Shown one piece after another: positions 3,602 to 44,178 of a DNA stretch of 64,000 nt. Location: positions 1-64,000 of the IMG/VR virus record IMGVR_UViG_3300033146_003479; one strand, 5' to 3'. Source of the DNA: a virus. Each line of letters begins with the position of its first letter. Position 1 is the first letter of the stretch. The notes beneath the pieces were generated by a model. It saw only the letters and a program-made list of their open reading frames with translations, searched no databases and was not told where the DNA came from. The position numbers and the translations under genes were made by a program.

Positions 3602-3630
3602 AATATATCATAATTAATATACTTTGTCAA
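3602..3630 (-). promoter_or_regulatory. sigma70-type promoter with extended -10
   Basis: minus strand TTGACA-17 nt-TATATT, with TG at the extended -10 position. Confidence 0.8.
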
Positions 3631-7226: not shown

Positions 7227-7266
7227 TACTCATTCCTCGAATTTATAATTGTTAAATTTACAAAAT

Positions 7267-7295
7267 AATATATCATAATTATGAATAAAATGCAA
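7267..7295 (-). promoter_or_regulatory. sigma70-type promoter with extended -10
   Basis: minus strand TTGCAT-17 nt-TATATT with TG extension. Confidence 0.75.
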
Positions 7296-7344
7296 ATAAA
7301 AAAAAGCCTAATATATGAATGCTTGGTAGACTATATAAAAAACC

Positions 7345-7380
7345 AAAAAAAGCATCATTCCCGAAGAAATGATGCTTTTT
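7345..7380 (-). terminator. intrinsic terminator downstream of gp23
   Basis: minus strand GCATCATTTC-UUCG-GGAATGATGC followed by a U7 run; cUUCGg loop typical of T4-like terminators. Confidence 0.9.
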
Positions 7381-7410
7381 GGACAAAAAGTCAGAAACTA
7401 AGTGATTTAA

Positions 7411-9018: not shown

Positions 9019-10584
9019 TTACATGAAGCGAGCATACTTAGATGCATCGACAACATTTTTACTTTCATTAAGGCTTTTCTTGGAGTTAGCATTCTTAATC
9101 TTACCTTCAGTAATTTTTTCAAATTTCTTAGGAGATTTTTTACTTGGAGTTCCAGTTGTGAAATTTTCCATAATCACTTTAAGTTTTCTTTTGAATTCTT
9201 TAGTGTTACTGAATTTTCCATAATTTTCAATGATAGTTCCTAATCTCTTTTTATCCATATCTGTAAGATCTTTTGTTGCTTCCATGAAAATTACTTTACA
9301 TTGTGTTTGCTCAAGAGCATTGTGTGCTTCAGTTAATTGCTTTTTCAAGTTTGCATTTTCATTTTTTTGAAGACTGATAACATTTTTAAATACTGTCTCG
9401 TCTTTGTATGATTCAGTAAGAGTTTCGGATCCGTAGATTTTTTTGATTGCGTGTGACATTTTTTCATATAGAGCCAGTTTTTTACTTGCTTCTATAGATT
9501 CTTTAATCATTTTACCATTAACTTGAACGAATTCTTTGACAACTTTATTCATGTATTTGTCCATATGGTTAAGCATTGAATTAGCCTTTTTAGTGGCTAT
9601 TGCTTTTGCCTTAGAATTAGCATACATTTCAAACATTACAACGATAGACTCTTTAAGGTCATCGTCCATAATATCGCTATCAATTTTCTCCATCATTTTT
9701 GCGACCTTTTCTTTAATCTCTACGGCTTCTTCTTCATACTCAACCATTTTTGATTTTAACTCATCATCTTCAGATGCGTTCTCACCTTCAGTTTCAAGTT
9801 CATCATCCTCTTCTGATTTTTCTGCTTCAGCAAATGGATTCTCTTCTTTTTCGGCTTCAGTTTCAAGTTCCGCGTCTTCTTCGTCTTTTTCGGCTTCAGC
9901 AAATGGATTCTCACCTTCAGTTTCAAGTTCTGCTTCTTCATCATCGTCTTCGCCTTCAGTGAAATTTGGCATTTCTGATTCTTTCATTTCCGGGTCAAAA
10001 TCTGGAAGTTTTTCGGATTCTTTAACTTCGAGGTCAACATCTTCTGATTCTTCTGATTCTTTAAATGCAGGAACTTCGTCGTCGTCGTCATCATCTTCAC
10101 TCTCATCGAAAGAGATGTCTTCTAAACTAAGTTCGTCGTCCTCATCAAATTCACCTTCAGCATCTTCTTCCTCATCTTCAGCAGTCATCTCTTCAACTGC
10201 TTTTTGGAATGCTGGCTTTTCTTCTTCTTCTTCTTCGTCTTCAGTTTCGAGTTCAGCATCATCTTCTGATTTTTCTGCTTCTGCAAATGGATTTGCTTCT
10301 GCTTCTTTTACTGCTTCGTCGTCTTTTGGCATAATGTCTGCTTCATTAGAAAGCATTTCTTTATCCGCTTCGGCACCTTCAGATAAACCTTTTTCTTTAC
10401 CTAATGCTGAATTGTGATACTTCTTAGTTTTTCCTGCAAGAATATCATCTACAACTTGGTTAATCTTCTTACTGATGCTAGTTCCACCCATATCAGTCTT
10501 CATGATTTGTACAGCAAGTTTTGATGACTCTTCTGGACTTCTACTAAGATTTTTACCCTCGGTTAAAGGTCTCTTTTTTCCCAT
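9019..10584 (-). CDS. gp22: prohead core/scaffold protein with long acidic insertion
   Basis: between gp21 and gp23; coiled-coil C-terminus (FMEATKDLTDMDKKRL..F.RKLKVIMENF); LTEG/LSEG/LNES cleavage-like sites. Confidence 0.85.
   Translation of the reverse strand: MGKKRPLTEGKNLSRSPEESSKLAVQIMKTDMGGTSISKKINQVVDDILAGKTKKYHNSALGKEKGLSEGAEADKEMLSNEADIMPKDDEAVKEAEANPFAEAEKSEDDAELETEDEEEEEEKPAFQKAVEEMTAEDEEEDAEGEFDEDDELSLEDISFDESEDDDDDDEVPAFKESEESEDVDLEVKESEKLPDFDPEMKESEMPNFTEGEDDDEEAELETEGENPFAEAEKDEEDAELETEAEKEENPFAEAEKSEEDDELETEGENASEDDELKSKMVEYEEEAVEIKEKVAKMMEKIDSDIMDDDLKESIVVMFEMYANSKAKAIATKKANSMLNHMDKYMNKVVKEFVQVNGKMIKESIEASKKLALYEKMSHAIKKIYGSETLTESYKDETVFKNVISLQKNENANLKKQLTEAHNALEQTQCKVIFMEATKDLTDMDKKRLGTIIENYGKFSNTKEFKRKLKVIMENFTTGTPSKKSPKKFEKITEGKIKNANSKKSLNESKNVVDASKYARFM
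9760..10310 (-). repeat. acidic NPFAEAEK..D.ELETE repeats inside gp22 (4 copies)
   Basis: GCAAATGGATT and TTCAGTTTC(A/G)AGTTC recur near 9790-9940 and 10240-10295. Confidence 0.85.
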
Positions 10585-10608: not shown

Positions 10609-11304
10609 TTATAAATTCTTTAAGAAATTGTCAAATAGTGATTTGAAAACCATTTGCTTCTCTCTTTTGCTCAAGGTTCTGTCTTTATTTAGTGAATCAC
10701 GAGATTCTTTAATTTTCGTGAAATTATAATTATGTCTAATATTTTTTCTATTTAACCAATTATATTCTAATCCTTCTACAACTTGTTCCATCATAGCCGT
10801 AGATACAGATGGCTCATGAACAATGTCCCAAGTGATTAATTGTAATTCTGTAACTTGACTATTTAAGTCTAATGTTCCTAGCGATCTACTAGATACTCCC
10901 AATTGAACTCCCATATCTAAGATTTGCTTAACAGCATCTCCTTTAGGTCCTCCAATTAATGCTTTTCCATATATCTTATTACCTTCTGTTCTGAGATCAA
11001 TGATTTTATGAGATACACGGTCGAGATTGATACTTGGCTCAGCAGGATGATCTAATTCTCCAATGGCTCTACAAATACTATCTTTTGGATTAACATATTT
11101 ATTATAATATCTTTCAATTTCTGGCATTAAAACGCTAGAACTATATATTCTACCATTTTGATTTCTAACTCCAGCCTCTTGAAAAATACCTTTAATGTAA
11201 TATTGCTTTTGATGGTCTTTATTTTCAATTAAAGTTTCACAATTGTGAAAATTATCATTTTCGTTTAAAAGAATAATTTTATTTGACATTGTATAGTTCT
11301 CCAT
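10609..11304 (-). CDS. gp21: prohead maturation protease (real start may be the ATG near 11289)
   Basis: YIKGIFQEAGVRNQNGRIY; AIGELDHP; LGVSSRSLG; WDIVHEPS. Confidence 0.95.
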   Translation of the reverse strand: MENYTMSNKIILLNENDNFHNCETLIENKDHQKQYYIKGIFQEAGVRNQNGRIYSSSVLMPEIERYYNKYVNPKDSICRAIGELDHPAEPSINLDRVSHKIIDLRTEGNKIYGKALIGGPKGDAVKQILDMGVQLGVSSRSLGTLDLNSQVTELQLITWDIVHEPSVSTAMMEQVVEGLEYNWLNRKNIRHNYNFTKIKESRDSLNKDRTLSKREKQMVFKSLFDNFLKNL

Positions 11305-11318
11305 GGTTAACTTTTTAA

Positions 11319-11326
11319 TATTTAGT
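11319..11326 (-). promoter_or_regulatory. late-promoter-like ACTAAATA upstream of gp21
   Basis: one of several NNTAAATA boxes in intergenic DNA just upstream of structural genes. Confidence 0.55.
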
Positions 11327-11352: not shown

Positions 11353-11360
11353 TATAAATA
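11353..11360 (+). promoter_or_regulatory. T4-type late promoter TATAAATA for 11396..13069
   Basis: exact T4 late consensus, followed by AGGAG near 11382 and ATG at 11396. Confidence 0.7.
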
Positions 11361-11395: not shown

Positions 11396-13069
11396 ATGCT
11401 AAGATTTAAATTATCATATATTCAAGAAGCCGATGAAAATCAATTTAGAAATCAATTCCAAAATATAGATGCCCAAACATATAAAACTATTTTACGAAAT
11501 GATCCAACATCAAAACTAGATAATGGATTCGTATCTAGAGTGGGTCCATTAGGAAAATACGCAATGATGTTATATAAGAAGCGACCTTTTGAATTAAATA
11601 AACTTGCTGATATTTATGCTGACTTAGAAACATTTAAGCGGAAATCATCATTGATTAATAAATCTATTCAGGACATTAGAGATGTTTCTGAATTAAATCG
11701 ACTAGTTTCGAGAGTGAAAAACAAAGAAACGTCAAATCAGAAAAAAAAGAACATTAAAGATGGCGAAAAAGATATAGTTCTTTATGAATCAATTGATGAG
11801 TGGCAAATTATAATTCCATTAACAAAAGAAGCATCTATTAAATGGGGAATGAAGTGTAATTCTAAATGGTGTACAGCAAGTAATAGCAAGTCTAATATGT
11901 TTGAGATATATATGTCGAAAGGAGATCTATATATCTTCCATAATACGACAGATCCTTCATTATCATTGCAATTTCATATGGATGTGAATGAAATGAGTTT
12001 TATGAATAATCAAGATAAGCCTGTCACTGTATCTGAAATCAAACAAAAATACCCAAATCTTTCGTCAGTTTTAGATAATATAATTAAAGATGAAAAAGAG
12101 AAGCAAATTAACGTGAAAAGTGCATGTAAAATTGATTTAGAACGAACTCGTCAGTTTAATGACACGATTTACTTAAATAAATGGTTATTCCATAGAGATG
12201 TTTCTCCTCTTATTGATTTAGCCGCCGATTTATTAAAAAAAGACTCATTTCAAAATCGGAGAAAAAATAGATCAATTGGAGTTATCGAGTATATGGGAAA
12301 ATACATCAAAGCATTTGAATATAAATTGGACTCAAAACTAGTAATCAATAATGTTCATAAGATTTTTGAACTTTTAGGAAAAGTTAATTTGTTACCTTTT
12401 GGAAAAGCATTTAGTTCTCAATATGAGATTGCATTTAGTGAAGGAAATCTTCGATTGTTAGATGTAACATTTTTAAGTGAAATAAAATCTCTAAATGATG
12501 AACAACTTAATGAGACTCTAAATGCAATAGATGAAATAAAAATTAAAGATGATGTGAGTGTTCGAAAAGCATTTGAATATATAGAGCCCAACAACAAATG
12601 GTTAATTACCATGTCTAAAATTATGAAAAAAATAAAAGGAAACATATCACTTCAATTATTTTATGATTCCACATCGGAGTTATTAGAAACTCTATCCAGT
12701 AAGCAAGTGGAATCAATATTCCATCACGATTTTATATATATAAAATCATTAACGGATAGAAAAAGTATTCGATTTTTAACTATAGTTGAGTCGCAAAGTT
12801 CAGTTGAACAATTATCAATTTGTGTAAAACAATTATCCAAAACTCAAATAGACTCTTTAATTCATCCAGTATATGTTAAGAGATATTTAAAACAACCAAA
12901 CACTCTTAATATTTATGCTCACATCTTTGCTAATTTTATTGATCAAGTTAGTGATAATGTAAAATTTATATCCGCAATTCATTCATATAGTAATGAGTCT
13001 GAATTAATTAAATCTACTTTTTCTAAAAATAAAGACTTATTATCAAAATTGGATATCAAATCAAAATAA
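11396..13069 (+). CDS. WCTAS-motif domain protein, probable head-packaged protein, paralogue of 15..2156
   Basis: EWQIIIPLTKEASIKWG..KWCTAS..FEIYMSKGDL; N-terminus MLRFKLSYIQEA resembles a capsid-targeting leader; late promoter. Confidence 0.7.
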   Translation: MLRFKLSYIQEADENQFRNQFQNIDAQTYKTILRNDPTSKLDNGFVSRVGPLGKYAMMLYKKRPFELNKLADIYADLETFKRKSSLINKSIQDIRDVSELNRLVSRVKNKETSNQKKKNIKDGEKDIVLYESIDEWQIIIPLTKEASIKWGMKCNSKWCTASNSKSNMFEIYMSKGDLYIFHNTTDPSLSLQFHMDVNEMSFMNNQDKPVTVSEIKQKYPNLSSVLDNIIKDEKEKQINVKSACKIDLERTRQFNDTIYLNKWLFHRDVSPLIDLAADLLKKDSFQNRRKNRSIGVIEYMGKYIKAFEYKLDSKLVINNVHKIFELLGKVNLLPFGKAFSSQYEIAFSEGNLRLLDVTFLSEIKSLNDEQLNETLNAIDEIKIKDDVSVRKAFEYIEPNNKWLITMSKIMKKIKGNISLQLFYDSTSELLETLSSKQVESIFHHDFIYIKSLTDRKSIRFLTIVESQSSVEQLSICVKQLSKTQIDSLIHPVYVKRYLKQPNTLNIYAHIFANFIDQVSDNVKFISAIHSYSNESELIKSTFSKNKDLLSKLDIKSK

Positions 13070-13072
13070 AAC

Positions 13073-13101
13073 TTGCATTAATTAGTTATTTATGATATAC
13101 T
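13073..13101 (+). promoter_or_regulatory. sigma70-type promoter with extended -10 and no downstream protein gene
   Basis: TTGCAT (13073-13078), 17 nt, TATACT (13096-13101), with TG at 13093-13094. Confidence 0.75.
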
Positions 13102-13107
13102 ATATAT

Positions 13108-13226
13108 GTTTAAGGGCTCGATTGATTTATAGTTGCGATTACTAACTTAGTTTAGTTTGCAGTGTATATGACAAAATCGACATTTAGAGATGACTTCGAG
13201 ATGCTCCGAAGAAGTCATCTCTTTTA
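13108..13226 (+). ncRNA. candidate structured small RNA (about 120 nt)
   Basis: bounded by the promoter and terminator; long interrupted hairpin 13118..13180 whose G-U pairs work only on the + strand. Confidence 0.55.
13186..13225 (+). terminator. intrinsic terminator hairpin abutting the portal stop codon
   Basis: AGAGATGACTTC / GAAGTCATCTCT 12-bp stem followed by TTTATT on + strand. Confidence 0.75.
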
Positions 13227-14957
13227 TTATCCTTGCTCTATGTCTCCAGGTGAATCGGGCGAATCGGGCGAATCGGGAGCGTCTTCGGACTCGACATCTT
13301 CTTCAGGAGGAGTAGTACTTGCATTTTCTCCATCTCCTGGGATTATTGAACCGACTCCCATAAAATTTCCTTGTTCTTCTTGATTCATTCTTTCAACTTC
13401 AACTGCAATTTGCTCATCGCTAAAGTTAAAAACTTCTCTCCATATGTATCCTTTTGATACATATTTTCCCTCATATGAATCTATCGCATTAACAACATCT
13501 AATTTTGCACTCATAACTTCTAAACGAAGAAATTCAGAAAAATAATTATCATTCGAATAGACATATCTAATTTTTGACATAACGTCGTTGATTTCGTGAC
13601 TACTAACAATTCGCTTAGTTATTAATTGAGTGGCTAATAAATCCTCAAACACTTTTGAGAATTGTCGTCTGAGTTTAATGATAAATTTATAAAATTTCAA
13701 CTCTTCTAGTGATAATTCTCGTCCTGAATTATATGAGACTCCTGAATTCTCTTTATCTGCTCTTCTTGCATATGGAACAGATAATGCTCTCCAAATTTTC
13801 CTTGCAAAATACTCTAAATCGGCTACTTGATCTAAATTTTGACCGCCCGCTAAAGTTGTTACTTCTGTTGATGCTGTACCATTTCTTCTAGGTAACCAGA
13901 AGTCTTCAGTCATGGCTAATACTGCATTTTTATCTTTAATTGTTCCACTATTAACATCATAAACCTTTTCCTGTCTATAATCTCTCATCAATTCTTGAAT
14001 ATGAGATTCGGCAGCATTTGGTGGCAGATTACCAACTTCGATATAAAACACACGTCTCTCAGGGGCTCTCGTGATACGATAAATTAACAGTGCATCTTCT
14101 AATAGAGTCAACTGATTAGCAACCTTCAATGCTTTATGTAAGTATGATAATGGATACTCTCTTGATGGATGATATAGTCCGGAGTCCACATATGTAATCA
14201 ATTCTTTAGGGATCTTTAATTCCTCAAAAGTCTCAGAATCAGTTGTGCCAGATGGAAACGAATACATACCTTCTGAACGATAATATCTATTTGAAAATTT
14301 AGGCTTTCTCACAACAAAGAATTCATCAGTCAGACGACGAATTTCATTGGGATTCCCAACTTCTTCTTTTTCATCAGCAAATACCGTGAATGCAGATACG
14401 AACCTTGAATCCAACATATTTAATTTTTGAATACCATCTCTGATATTATCAACATCAAAAACTTTTTCAAAAAATATTGTTCCATCAACATAAAAATGAC
14501 GAAAAATATAATGACCTTGTCCTCTAAAGTCCAATAGTTCATCTCTAATGAATGAGAATTCATCAATTATCTGCTCTCTTATTTCTGGTGGAATATCATT
14601 ATTAGTGAAGGATAAATTGACTACATTATCCTCATTCTCACTCTGAACAATACTCTCATTAACTATCTCCTCAATAGCATCCTCACATTCAGGCAACATC
14701 GATATGAATCTGTACTTTTCAATTGCTTGTTTACGCTCCAATTCATATAAATCAGTAGACATATATCTTGTAGAGTCAGCAATAAACTCATCGACCTTTA
14801 TTGTCCCTTTTTTTCCAAAGTATTCGCCAAATTCAGACGATGGGCCAGGCGCCTTCATTGCAGAGGTGTTTTTGAAATTCAAGCCTTGCTGATCGATTCT
14901 TTGGATCTTATCTGCGGCTTTGCGATGTGAACTTAATTTATTTAAAAAATTAAACAT
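13227..14957 (-). CDS. gp20: T4-like portal protein
   Basis: PECEDAIEEIVNE; FRHFYVDG; LEDALLIYRITRAPERRVFYIEVGNLP; EDFWLPRR..TEVTTLAGGQNL. Confidence 0.97.
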   Translation of the reverse strand: MFNFLNKLSSHRKAADKIQRIDQQGLNFKNTSAMKAPGPSSEFGEYFGKKGTIKVDEFIADSTRYMSTDLYELERKQAIEKYRFISMLPECEDAIEEIVNESIVQSENEDNVVNLSFTNNDIPPEIREQIIDEFSFIRDELLDFRGQGHYIFRHFYVDGTIFFEKVFDVDNIRDGIQKLNMLDSRFVSAFTVFADEKEEVGNPNEIRRLTDEFFVVRKPKFSNRYYRSEGMYSFPSGTTDSETFEELKIPKELITYVDSGLYHPSREYPLSYLHKALKVANQLTLLEDALLIYRITRAPERRVFYIEVGNLPPNAAESHIQELMRDYRQEKVYDVNSGTIKDKNAVLAMTEDFWLPRRNGTASTEVTTLAGGQNLDQVADLEYFARKIWRALSVPYARRADKENSGVSYNSGRELSLEELKFYKFIIKLRRQFSKVFEDLLATQLITKRIVSSHEINDVMSKIRYVYSNDNYFSEFLRLEVMSAKLDVVNAIDSYEGKYVSKGYIWREVFNFSDEQIAVEVERMNQEEQGNFMGVGSIIPGDGENASTTPPEEDVESEDAPDSPDSPDSPGDIEQG

Positions 14958-14968
14958 GTTTTCTCCGT

Positions 14969-15901
14969 TTACAAATTTATACTATTATTTAGAGTTTCCG
15001 CAATATCATTGATTTGCCAATAAGGGATTCTTAAAAGGGCAACGTTGTTGATTTCACAGAATGCATCTTTAATGTTATCCTTAATCATTCTATCGATTAA
15101 ATTTGTAATACGTGTTAAATTCGACTCATTAGACTTAAATGATGTAGGCAAATAATGTTGTTGTCCATCATATTCAATTAATAAATTATTCACAGGAAGA
15201 TAAAAATCAAAAGGTAAAGTATGTTTATCTTTGCAATTAGTAAATCGTTTTTGAATTTCATACTGAATATCATTATCATCTAAAAATTTACTTATTAGTG
15301 TCTCACCAGCACTTCGATGACATTTTGGACATCTATTCTTCCAAAGAAACGCTGAAGGCTTAATATCCCATTGATGTCCACACACATTATGTCGCATTAA
15401 CACATGTTCTTTGGATACAACATATTTTGTTAGGACTGAGTACTCATCTCCAACTAAATCAAAAACTTCTTTGATGAACATATCATGTGTTTTTTTATTT
15501 GAACAATTTGGGCAATGAGAGTTCTTTTGAAGTATCGAGTTGGCTTGAGGATTCCATATATGACCACAAACGTTGTGTCGAAGTCTAATAGTATCTCTAG
15601 AGGTAGTATATGTATTAATGATTGAATATTCAGAACCATATAATTCATAAACATCTAAAACAAACTGTTCATGTGATTTAGTCCGATTACGATATCGTGC
15701 TTTTTTCGCACATTCAGGACAGCGAACATTATCGTTGATAAAACTGCTCGCTCGAACATAATATTCGTGTTCACATATGTGATGTTTGATTTTAACCTTA
15801 GTTGACATATTAATGAATGCTCCTATTACGGAGTATTCATTGTTAGTTTTTTCGGACACTTCCGACACAAATTCGCTGTGAGTTCGTTTTAATGATTTCA
15901 T
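14969..15901 (-). mobile_element. free-standing Zn-ribbon PD-(D/E)XK homing endonuclease next to the portal gene
   Basis: three H..CGH.W..RCP.C repeats; LPFDFYLP..LLIEYDGQQHY. Confidence 0.8.
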
Positions 15902-44127: not shown

Positions 44128-44178
44128 TAATATATCATTCAATTAAAAAATAATAAAACTTTATTGAATGATATATTA
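44128..44178. repeat. perfect 16-bp inverted repeat with a 19-nt spacer; each arm holds TGATATATT
   Basis: TAATATATCATTCAAT / ATTGAATGATATATTA. Confidence 0.9.

Follow-up and report, generated by a model that had tools for sequence, protein, structure and literature searches.

A putative early promoter and a strong intrinsic terminator bound a short ORF-free spacer beside an inserted orphan gene in the head-gene region of a T4-like phage

Bacterial type-I 3′-UTR-derived sRNAs, such as DapZ and MicL, have their own promoter at the end of an upstream ORF, use a shared intrinsic terminator, and are about 100 nt long. They are conserved and Hfq-bound, and they have defined seed-target pairs. In virulent phages, cappable-seq and transcript-end mapping have yielded many ncRNA candidates, including ncRNA1 and ncRNA2 of PAK_P3 and others in phiKZ and further phages (PMC10914365). 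These candidates are ORF-free, ~90–210 nt long, located in intergenic regions or UTRs, and mostly of unknown function; many are processed from UTRs and have no start site of their own (PMC10914365). A different kind of short unit is found in the T4-type phages RB49 and phi1, whose genomes carry promoter-early stem-loop (PeSL) cassettes (Arbiol et al. 2010, PMC2839356). A PeSL comprises a strong sigma70-like promoter, an AT-rich upstream tract with an upstream stop codon, and a terminator stem-loop (PMC2839356). PeSLs flank orphan genes in plastic regions, where they shield late genes from early transcription; with units of ~100 bp and ~50 of them per genome, they are similar enough to one another for recombination (PMC2839356). 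Finally, a moron is an inserted gene with its own promoter and terminator (PMC2839356).

Here we analyze a short intergenic unit in the first 64 kb of an IMG/VR virus record of 134,396 bp (31.6% GC, estimated to be 60% complete); this 64-kb stretch is called the window throughout. The record comes from an uncultured, distant T4-like phage, and the best match to its portal protein among 50,697 phage records is 37.6% identical. The unit occupies a 157-bp spacer (13070–13226) between a 557-aa orphan gene on the + strand (11396–13069, stop codon 13067–13069) and the T4-type portal gene, gp20, on the − strand (13227–14957; PF07230, E = 1.8e-133; phrog_213), with which it is convergent. The orphan gene lies inverted between the portal gene and the 231-aa prohead protease gene, gp21 (10609–11304, −; phrog_207), and family matches identify a T4-type scaffold protein gene at 9019–10584 (−). 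The original prediction had set a stand-alone structured small RNA gene here within a head operon. That setting was wrong, as the spacer separates convergent genes, the + strand orphan and the − strand portal gene, and not co-directional ones. The phage’s structural genes are preceded by late boxes that read [A/C]TAAATA. The protease gene has its own box, ACTAAATA, at 11326–11319, and the orphan gene is preceded by a late-type TATAAATA box (11353–11360) and a Shine-Dalgarno sequence. As candidates for a − strand late promoter in the spacer we found only ATAAATC and CTAAATG, which are without the final A of [A/C]TAAATA, and we rejected them. At its end (13252–13277, −) the portal gene contains three perfect 9-bp repeats (GAATCGGGC on the + strand) that encode a short, repeated acidic/proline C-terminal tail; the portal tails of relatives differ, ahead of a similar ...EQG or ...EMG end.

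The promoter-like element (13073–13101, +) has its boxes where they had been predicted. The −35 TTGCAT (13073–13078) begins 4 nt past the stop of the orphan gene and is followed by a 17-nt spacer, the TG of an extended −10 (13093–13094), and the −10 TATACT (13096–13101). Abutting the −35 is an A-rich, UP-element-like tract (AAAATAAAAC, 13063–13072, +) that includes the stop codon of the 557-aa gene. The element had been described as near-consensus, but by the E. coli standard it is modest, agreeing with that consensus at only 8/12 positions, 3/6 in the −35 and 5/6 in the −10 plus the extended TG. A generic promoter scan returned 51 sites compared with 50.8 in shuffles, and the 13073 site was not listed among them. 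What the element does fit is a promoter class enriched in the phage itself.

This class is recognized by the extended −10 TGATATAYT, which occurs 35 times in the 134-kb record when ~12 copies are expected. Seventeen of the copies are in intergenic DNA, which makes up 4% of the record, and nearly all of these precede a same-strand gene by 29–62 nt. As the genes behind the copies include those for the gp44 clamp loader, the gp61 primase, the gp32 single-strand-binding protein, and the gp41 replicative helicase, together with endonuclease-like (homing-endonuclease-like) genes, we take the class to be pre-replicative, and it is distinct from the late [A/C]TAAATA boxes. Its full form, an A-tract followed by TTG(A/C)(A/C)(A/T), 17 nt, and TGATATAYT, is present in exactly four copies, at 3630(−), 7295(−), 76408(+), and 13073(+), compared with ~0.1 copies expected by chance (our estimate, from base composition). 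Two of the sister promoters, 76408(+) and 3630(−), have the same A-tract ahead of their −35. The other three full-form copies are followed at 32–42 nt by a GGAG-type ribosome site and an ATG, whereas the 13073 copy has neither; it is the sole intergenic member of the class without a downstream gene, except for a mirror-image match at 44169. Because it belongs to the phage’s own class by enrichment, position, and full form, we accept the promoter at 13073 as probably real and early.

Examples of the extended −10 of this class are found at 7267(−), 41299(−), 44129(−), and 57310(−) in the window and at 76428(+) and 123212(+) in the rest of the record. Some TGATATAYT copies have TCGTTAAAAA or ATTTAAAAAG near the −35, not TTGACA, and may form a separate, perhaps middle-type, subclass. 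At 44129(−) and 44169(+), 40 nt apart, TTGAATGATATATT is present on both strands, and the two copies make up a large palindrome that surrounds the clamp-loader promoter. In the region 7227–7410, a bidirectional perfect terminator (7348–7379, with a UUCG-type loop) follows the major capsid gene, and ~50 nt past it the sister promoter at 7295(−), TTGCAT-17-TGATATATT, is placed to drive a Zn-ribbon endonuclease-like gene. The terminator-then-promoter order there is the usual one, and that at 13073–13222 is the reverse.

The downstream end of the unit is an intrinsic terminator (13186–13230, +). As originally described, it has a perfect 12-bp stem (13186–13197/13211–13222), which contains five G-C pairs, encloses a 13-nt loop, and runs into TTTATTAT; the T-rich tail (13223–13230) overlaps the portal stop codon on the − strand (13227–13229). 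No shuffle among 200 folded as well on the + strand (z = −4.1), and a scan of the 134-kb record turned up no more than a handful of intergenic terminators with a perfect stem, this one included. Read on the − strand, the stem runs into AAATGTCG, with no U-tract; thus, the terminator is + oriented. The distance from the −10 to the terminator stem is 85 nt. Between the stop codon of the orphan gene and the terminator there are 117 nt, compared with ~20–32 nt in three other such pairs of the record (our arithmetic), and something extra therefore lies between the two.

That extra DNA holds the predicted transcript body (13108–13185, +), whose start we place ~7 nt after the −10 and which contains no gene-like ORF; the 8-codon ORF at 13106–13132 has no Shine-Dalgarno sequence, as had been noted. 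The arms of an interrupted hairpin (13118–13180) are also present as reported, with TCGATT (13118–13123) facing AATCGA (13175–13180), GTTGCGA (13132–13138) facing TTGCAGT (13157–13163), and three G-U pairs. The hairpin had been put forward as long and structured, but it folds like its shuffles: the minimum free energy of 13108–13184 is −13.3 kcal/mol vs. a shuffle mean of −11.7 (z = −0.62), and 51 of 200 shuffles did as well. The G-U pairs had been read as evidence of orientation, but the opposite strand scores similarly (z = −0.53); the lower energy of the + strand reflects its G+U content and not selected G-U pairs. For the whole unit z reaches −2.46, which must be credited to the terminator given the z-score of the body. 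An inverted-repeat scan found no stable hairpin over the promoter. The GC content of the body is 32%, compared with a mean of 22% for intergenic DNA and 31% for coding DNA, a value that fits an RNA gene and an ex-coding remnant equally well.

Two other elements of possible regulatory character lie outside the window. At 97985–98164 of the record, two small hairpins have a common loop, TCATATAAAAA, and differ in their stems (GGAGTC/GACTCT vs. GGGCTC/GACCCT) by one compensatory pair change. Between them and a downstream 682-aa gene lie a terminator and a late box, and the hairpins are possibly a protein-binding RNA operator. At 65201–65987 of the record (L050:1201–1987), spacers of 474 and 124 nt flank a 62-aa ORF and contain an inverted repeat of ~50 bp (GGTACAATTTTGATCTCTTTTTCGAAGAAAAAGAG...). 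A switch in gene orientation coincides there with the minimum of the cumulative GC skew (64–66 kb), and the region is a candidate origin or control region.

Searches for relatives of the unit were negative throughout. Rfam 15 gave no match anywhere in the window at gathering thresholds, and in E-value mode over 12950–13350 the best models overlapping the unit scored 14–21 bits vs. thresholds of 47–62, so that no Rfam family describes it. ARAGORN found no tRNA or tmRNA in the window or in the whole 134-kb record, in agreement with the earlier statement that the unit is not a tRNA. Neither blastn against the 50,697 phage records nor exact 19-mer and 23-mer patterns in viral contigs gave a match, diverged homologs being beyond the reach of such exact-pattern scans, and the 23-mer was also absent from metagenome contigs. 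A 17-mer pattern had 10 matches, which we dismissed as chance; they fall in unrelated coding sequence, and their flanks have 26–39% ungapped identity. The stem/hairpin-core pattern was absent from 185,579 species genomes, a scan that diverged mimics would escape, and the best nhmmer hit across 45 loci had E = 0.43. The phage has no second copy of the unit: a search of its own genome returned a 22-nt match to the promoter core only, and blastn-short returned nothing longer than 17 nt.

Signs of what such an RNA might act on were sought as well. The unit contains no tandem repeat or mimic features, and in particular no repeat units matching a host repeat, as a ToxI-like antitoxin or repeat mimic would have. 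Against 120 translation-initiation regions of the phage, the best duplex reached −27.7 kcal/mol; the minima of shuffled RNAs averaged −30.0, and 79% of them at least equaled it. The original prediction had suggested a decoy, a sponge, or a regulator, and neither Rfam, nor homologs, nor repeats and mimics, nor phage targets above chance provide evidence for any of these. It had also named a lack of conservation and a fold no better than shuffles as grounds for giving it up, and for the RNA body this is what we find. The missing homologs are mostly a matter of missing close relatives, as the nearest portal protein is only 70% identical.

The two closest portal relatives, 70% and 64% identical, came from a search of 5.8 billion proteins. 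In both, the spacer from portal to protease gene is 70 nt and includes ACTAAATA as its late box as well as a GGAG ribosome site, and the 557-aa orphan gene is absent. The protease gene of the window retains its own ACTAAATA box, and the portal protein ends in ...IEQG, the same as in the relative L022 (our translation). More distant relatives (54–55% portal identity) have a co-directional gene of 312–322 aa at the portal-protease junction. Because portal and protease genes are only 70 nt apart in the two closest relatives, the orphan gene, promoter, and terminator are a lineage-specific insertion of ~1.9 kb, in inverted orientation, which comprises the 557-aa gene behind its TATAAATA late box and then the promoter-like site, spacer, and terminator. 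The mRNA of the orphan gene must then share the terminator of the small unit. Among viral and metagenome contigs we found no closer relatives with the cassette. The cassette shows the gp20-gp21 junction to be a place that accepts insertions. Directly upstream of the portal gene, at 14969–15901 (−), the window has a 310-aa HNH endonuclease gene, which is a further lineage-specific insertion among the head genes; at this site relatives carry no HNH gene but a TnsA-like-N gene and one of ~160 aa. In the closest relative (L021:6817–7971), the prohead protease gene encodes 384 aa, with an intein-splicing domain between two Peptidase_S77 halves, and thus carries an intein; the gp21 of the window is without one.

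The orphan protein gives little indication of what the cassette carries. It belongs to no Pfam, PHROG, or PADLOC family, its sole match in the protein database is itself, and in the Atlas it falls only into viral hypothetical clusters, so that this neighbour provides the unit with no link to defence or anti-defence. It is weakly matched in Pseudomonas jumbo phages. Its N-terminal ~220 aa resemble the product of the ORF at 15–2156 in the same phage (33% identity over 223 aligned positions, E = 1e-19), and the spacer after this paralog (2157–2264) shows neither a promoter of this kind nor significant folding.

We tentatively favor a model, to which we give somewhat less than an even chance, in which the spacer is a PeSL-like boundary module or an empty gene cassette and its RNA a by-product. 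The 157-bp spacer would be the downstream boundary module of the ~1.9-kb cassette, which holds the late, inverted orphan gene together with its regulatory signals and has been inserted between the gp20 portal and gp21 protease genes. The module would consist of a host-sigma70-type promoter of the phage’s pre-replicative class, ~78 ORF-free nucleotides, and a strong + strand terminator. We infer that early in infection host RNA polymerase would initiate near 13108 and end at ~13226, so that an RNA of ~120 nt is probably made, with a terminator in common with the late mRNA of the orphan gene; the terminator would prevent either + strand transcript from extending into the portal gene as antisense RNA. 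The selected parts would be the promoter and the terminator as a pair, either as a PeSL-like regulatory or recombination cassette or as the shell left by a lost early gene, in which the 5′ leader is joined to the 3′ trailer. A leader of 30–60 nt and a trailer of 20–30 nt would together give the observed 85 nt, and we regard such an origin as equally simple as the PeSL-like one. More probably than a folded effector, the short RNA would be a by-product, and we infer its absence of function on the same footing as its transcription and the timing of that transcription, whereas the motifs, the promoter class, the terminator, the insertion, and the missing signal of structure or conservation are observed. 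Of the early ncRNA unit first proposed, promoter class and terminator uphold an independent, + oriented, early-type unit with no credible ORF; the claim that it is structured is not supported.

The favored model has difficulties of its own. The retention of so good a promoter beside a terminator could equally be a sign that the RNA itself is of use, and the GC content of the body (32% vs. 22% for intergenic DNA) fits an RNA gene equally. No extended repeat of the module exists in the record, which leaves a recombination role without support, and the stem-loop of a PeSL lies within or next to the promoter with a gene after it, whereas here it stands 85 nt farther down and has no gene behind it. 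Weak structure is common among trans-acting sRNAs, so that the poor fold z-score is compatible with function and leaves room for a functional sRNA. A genuine trans-acting or decoy RNA, with the ~120-nt early transcript as the selected product, would pair with host mRNA or titrate a host RNA-binding or defence protein, and its layout would be that of the type-I 3′-UTR-derived sRNAs. The credible early-class promoter, the strong terminator on the same strand, the lack of an ORF between them, and a body GC content 10 points above the intergenic mean all agree with it, and ncRNAs of this size are known from virulent phages, PAK_P3 ncRNA1 and ncRNA2 among them (PMC10914365). We nevertheless place it on the unlikely side, as the body folds like shuffles on both strands, no Rfam family, homolog in the collections searched, repeat, or mimic feature was found, and the best phage duplex is weaker than the mean shuffle minimum. 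A more specific version, in which an early sRNA of this lineage was gained with the inverted orphan gene and acts on a host factor, for example as a decoy for a defence or RNA-binding protein, is rather improbable; it would constitute a new RNA family without described relatives.

The spacer might also hold no separate unit, being simply the long 3′ UTR and terminator of the late 557-aa gene with an inactive or fortuitous promoter match. Generic sigma70-like matches are as common in shuffles of this 32% GC DNA, the −35 agrees at only 3/6 positions, and the orphan-gene mRNA would in any case require a terminator ahead of the portal gene. However, the match is to the phage’s enriched class, A-tract included, and its exact TGATATACT recurs at 76428; with four full-form copies where chance would give ~0.1, and with a stop-to-terminator distance of 117 nt where ~20–32 nt is found in three other pairs, we think this explanation improbable. 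Smaller still is the chance that the selected product is a tiny protein, from the leaderless 8-codon ORF (13106–13132, MFKGSIDL) or from a 7-codon TTG ORF at 13122. The ATG at 13106 does stand at the expected transcription start, and an AAGGG (13112–13116) precedes the TTG by 5 nt. But the peptides would be 7–8 residues long and have no homologs, and real genes in this phage have strong GGAG-type ribosome sites 32–42 nt past the −10. Moreover, the body is repeatedly closed in all three + strand frames, and the longer ORFs (13162–13383 and 13190–13315) pass through the terminator into portal antisense. A role at the level of DNA or antisense is just as remote. The T4 origins oriF and oriG combine a promoter with an unwinding element and are primed by an R-loop, and a pre-replicative promoter that serves no gene would suit a promoter-primed origin of that type; yet at 32% GC the DNA past the promoter is no more AT-rich than the genome (mean 31.6% GC), the cumulative GC skew is featureless at 13 kb and has its minimum at 64–66 kb, and the unit contains no iterons. 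Early antisense control of portal read-through is the other version: because no U-tract follows the hairpin for transcription running in the portal direction, late portal transcripts may continue past it and be complementary to the small RNA, but the strong terminator confines the reach of any antisense to the spacer itself.

How does the unit compare with the systems described above? Its likeness to PeSLs is considerable at the level of sequence. It has a promoter of the form AAAATAAAAC-TTGCAT-17-TGaTATACT behind an AT-rich tract with an upstream stop codon, it has a terminating stem-loop that would insulate late virion genes from early transcription, and it flanks an orphan gene whose presence varies among relatives (absent from those with 70% and 64% portal identity). 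It differs in three respects. The stem-loop of a PeSL is within, over, or beside the promoter, whereas here it is 85 nt past the −10. A PeSL ends in a Shine-Dalgarno sequence and a gene, and the unit has neither, although its three sister promoters do. Copies of a PeSL are dispersed and similar over ~100 bp, whereas here only the promoter core recurs. Given these three differences, we regard the unit as PeSL-like in function and not as a member of the group.

With the bacterial type-I 3′-UTR-derived sRNAs the unit has in common, as far as motifs go, a promoter at the 3′ end of an ORF and a shared terminator, but it differs from them in pairing a late upstream gene with an early-type small unit. 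Like the phage ncRNA candidates, its transcript would be short, ORF-free, and intergenic in a lytic phage genome; unlike them, it has its own promoter and is defined by sequence motifs and not by RNA. The cassette as a whole resembles a moron, as a gene particular to this lineage, equipped with a late box and a terminator of its own, lies between conserved head genes that it does not disrupt. An additional early promoter between gene and terminator is outside the moron concept. The unit opens no long-standing question. The analysis defines two promoter types for the phage, a pre-replicative class, TGATATAYT with or without an A-tract and a TTG −35, and a late box, [A/C]TAAATA. Should the RNA be both made and functional, it would add another orphan sRNA in an AT-rich, uncultured T4-like branch and would represent an early RNA gene carried on a late-gene cassette within the head module. 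Under the boundary-module model that we favor, the unit would be a further case of promoter-plus-terminator modules placed around orphan genes, as in PeSLs.
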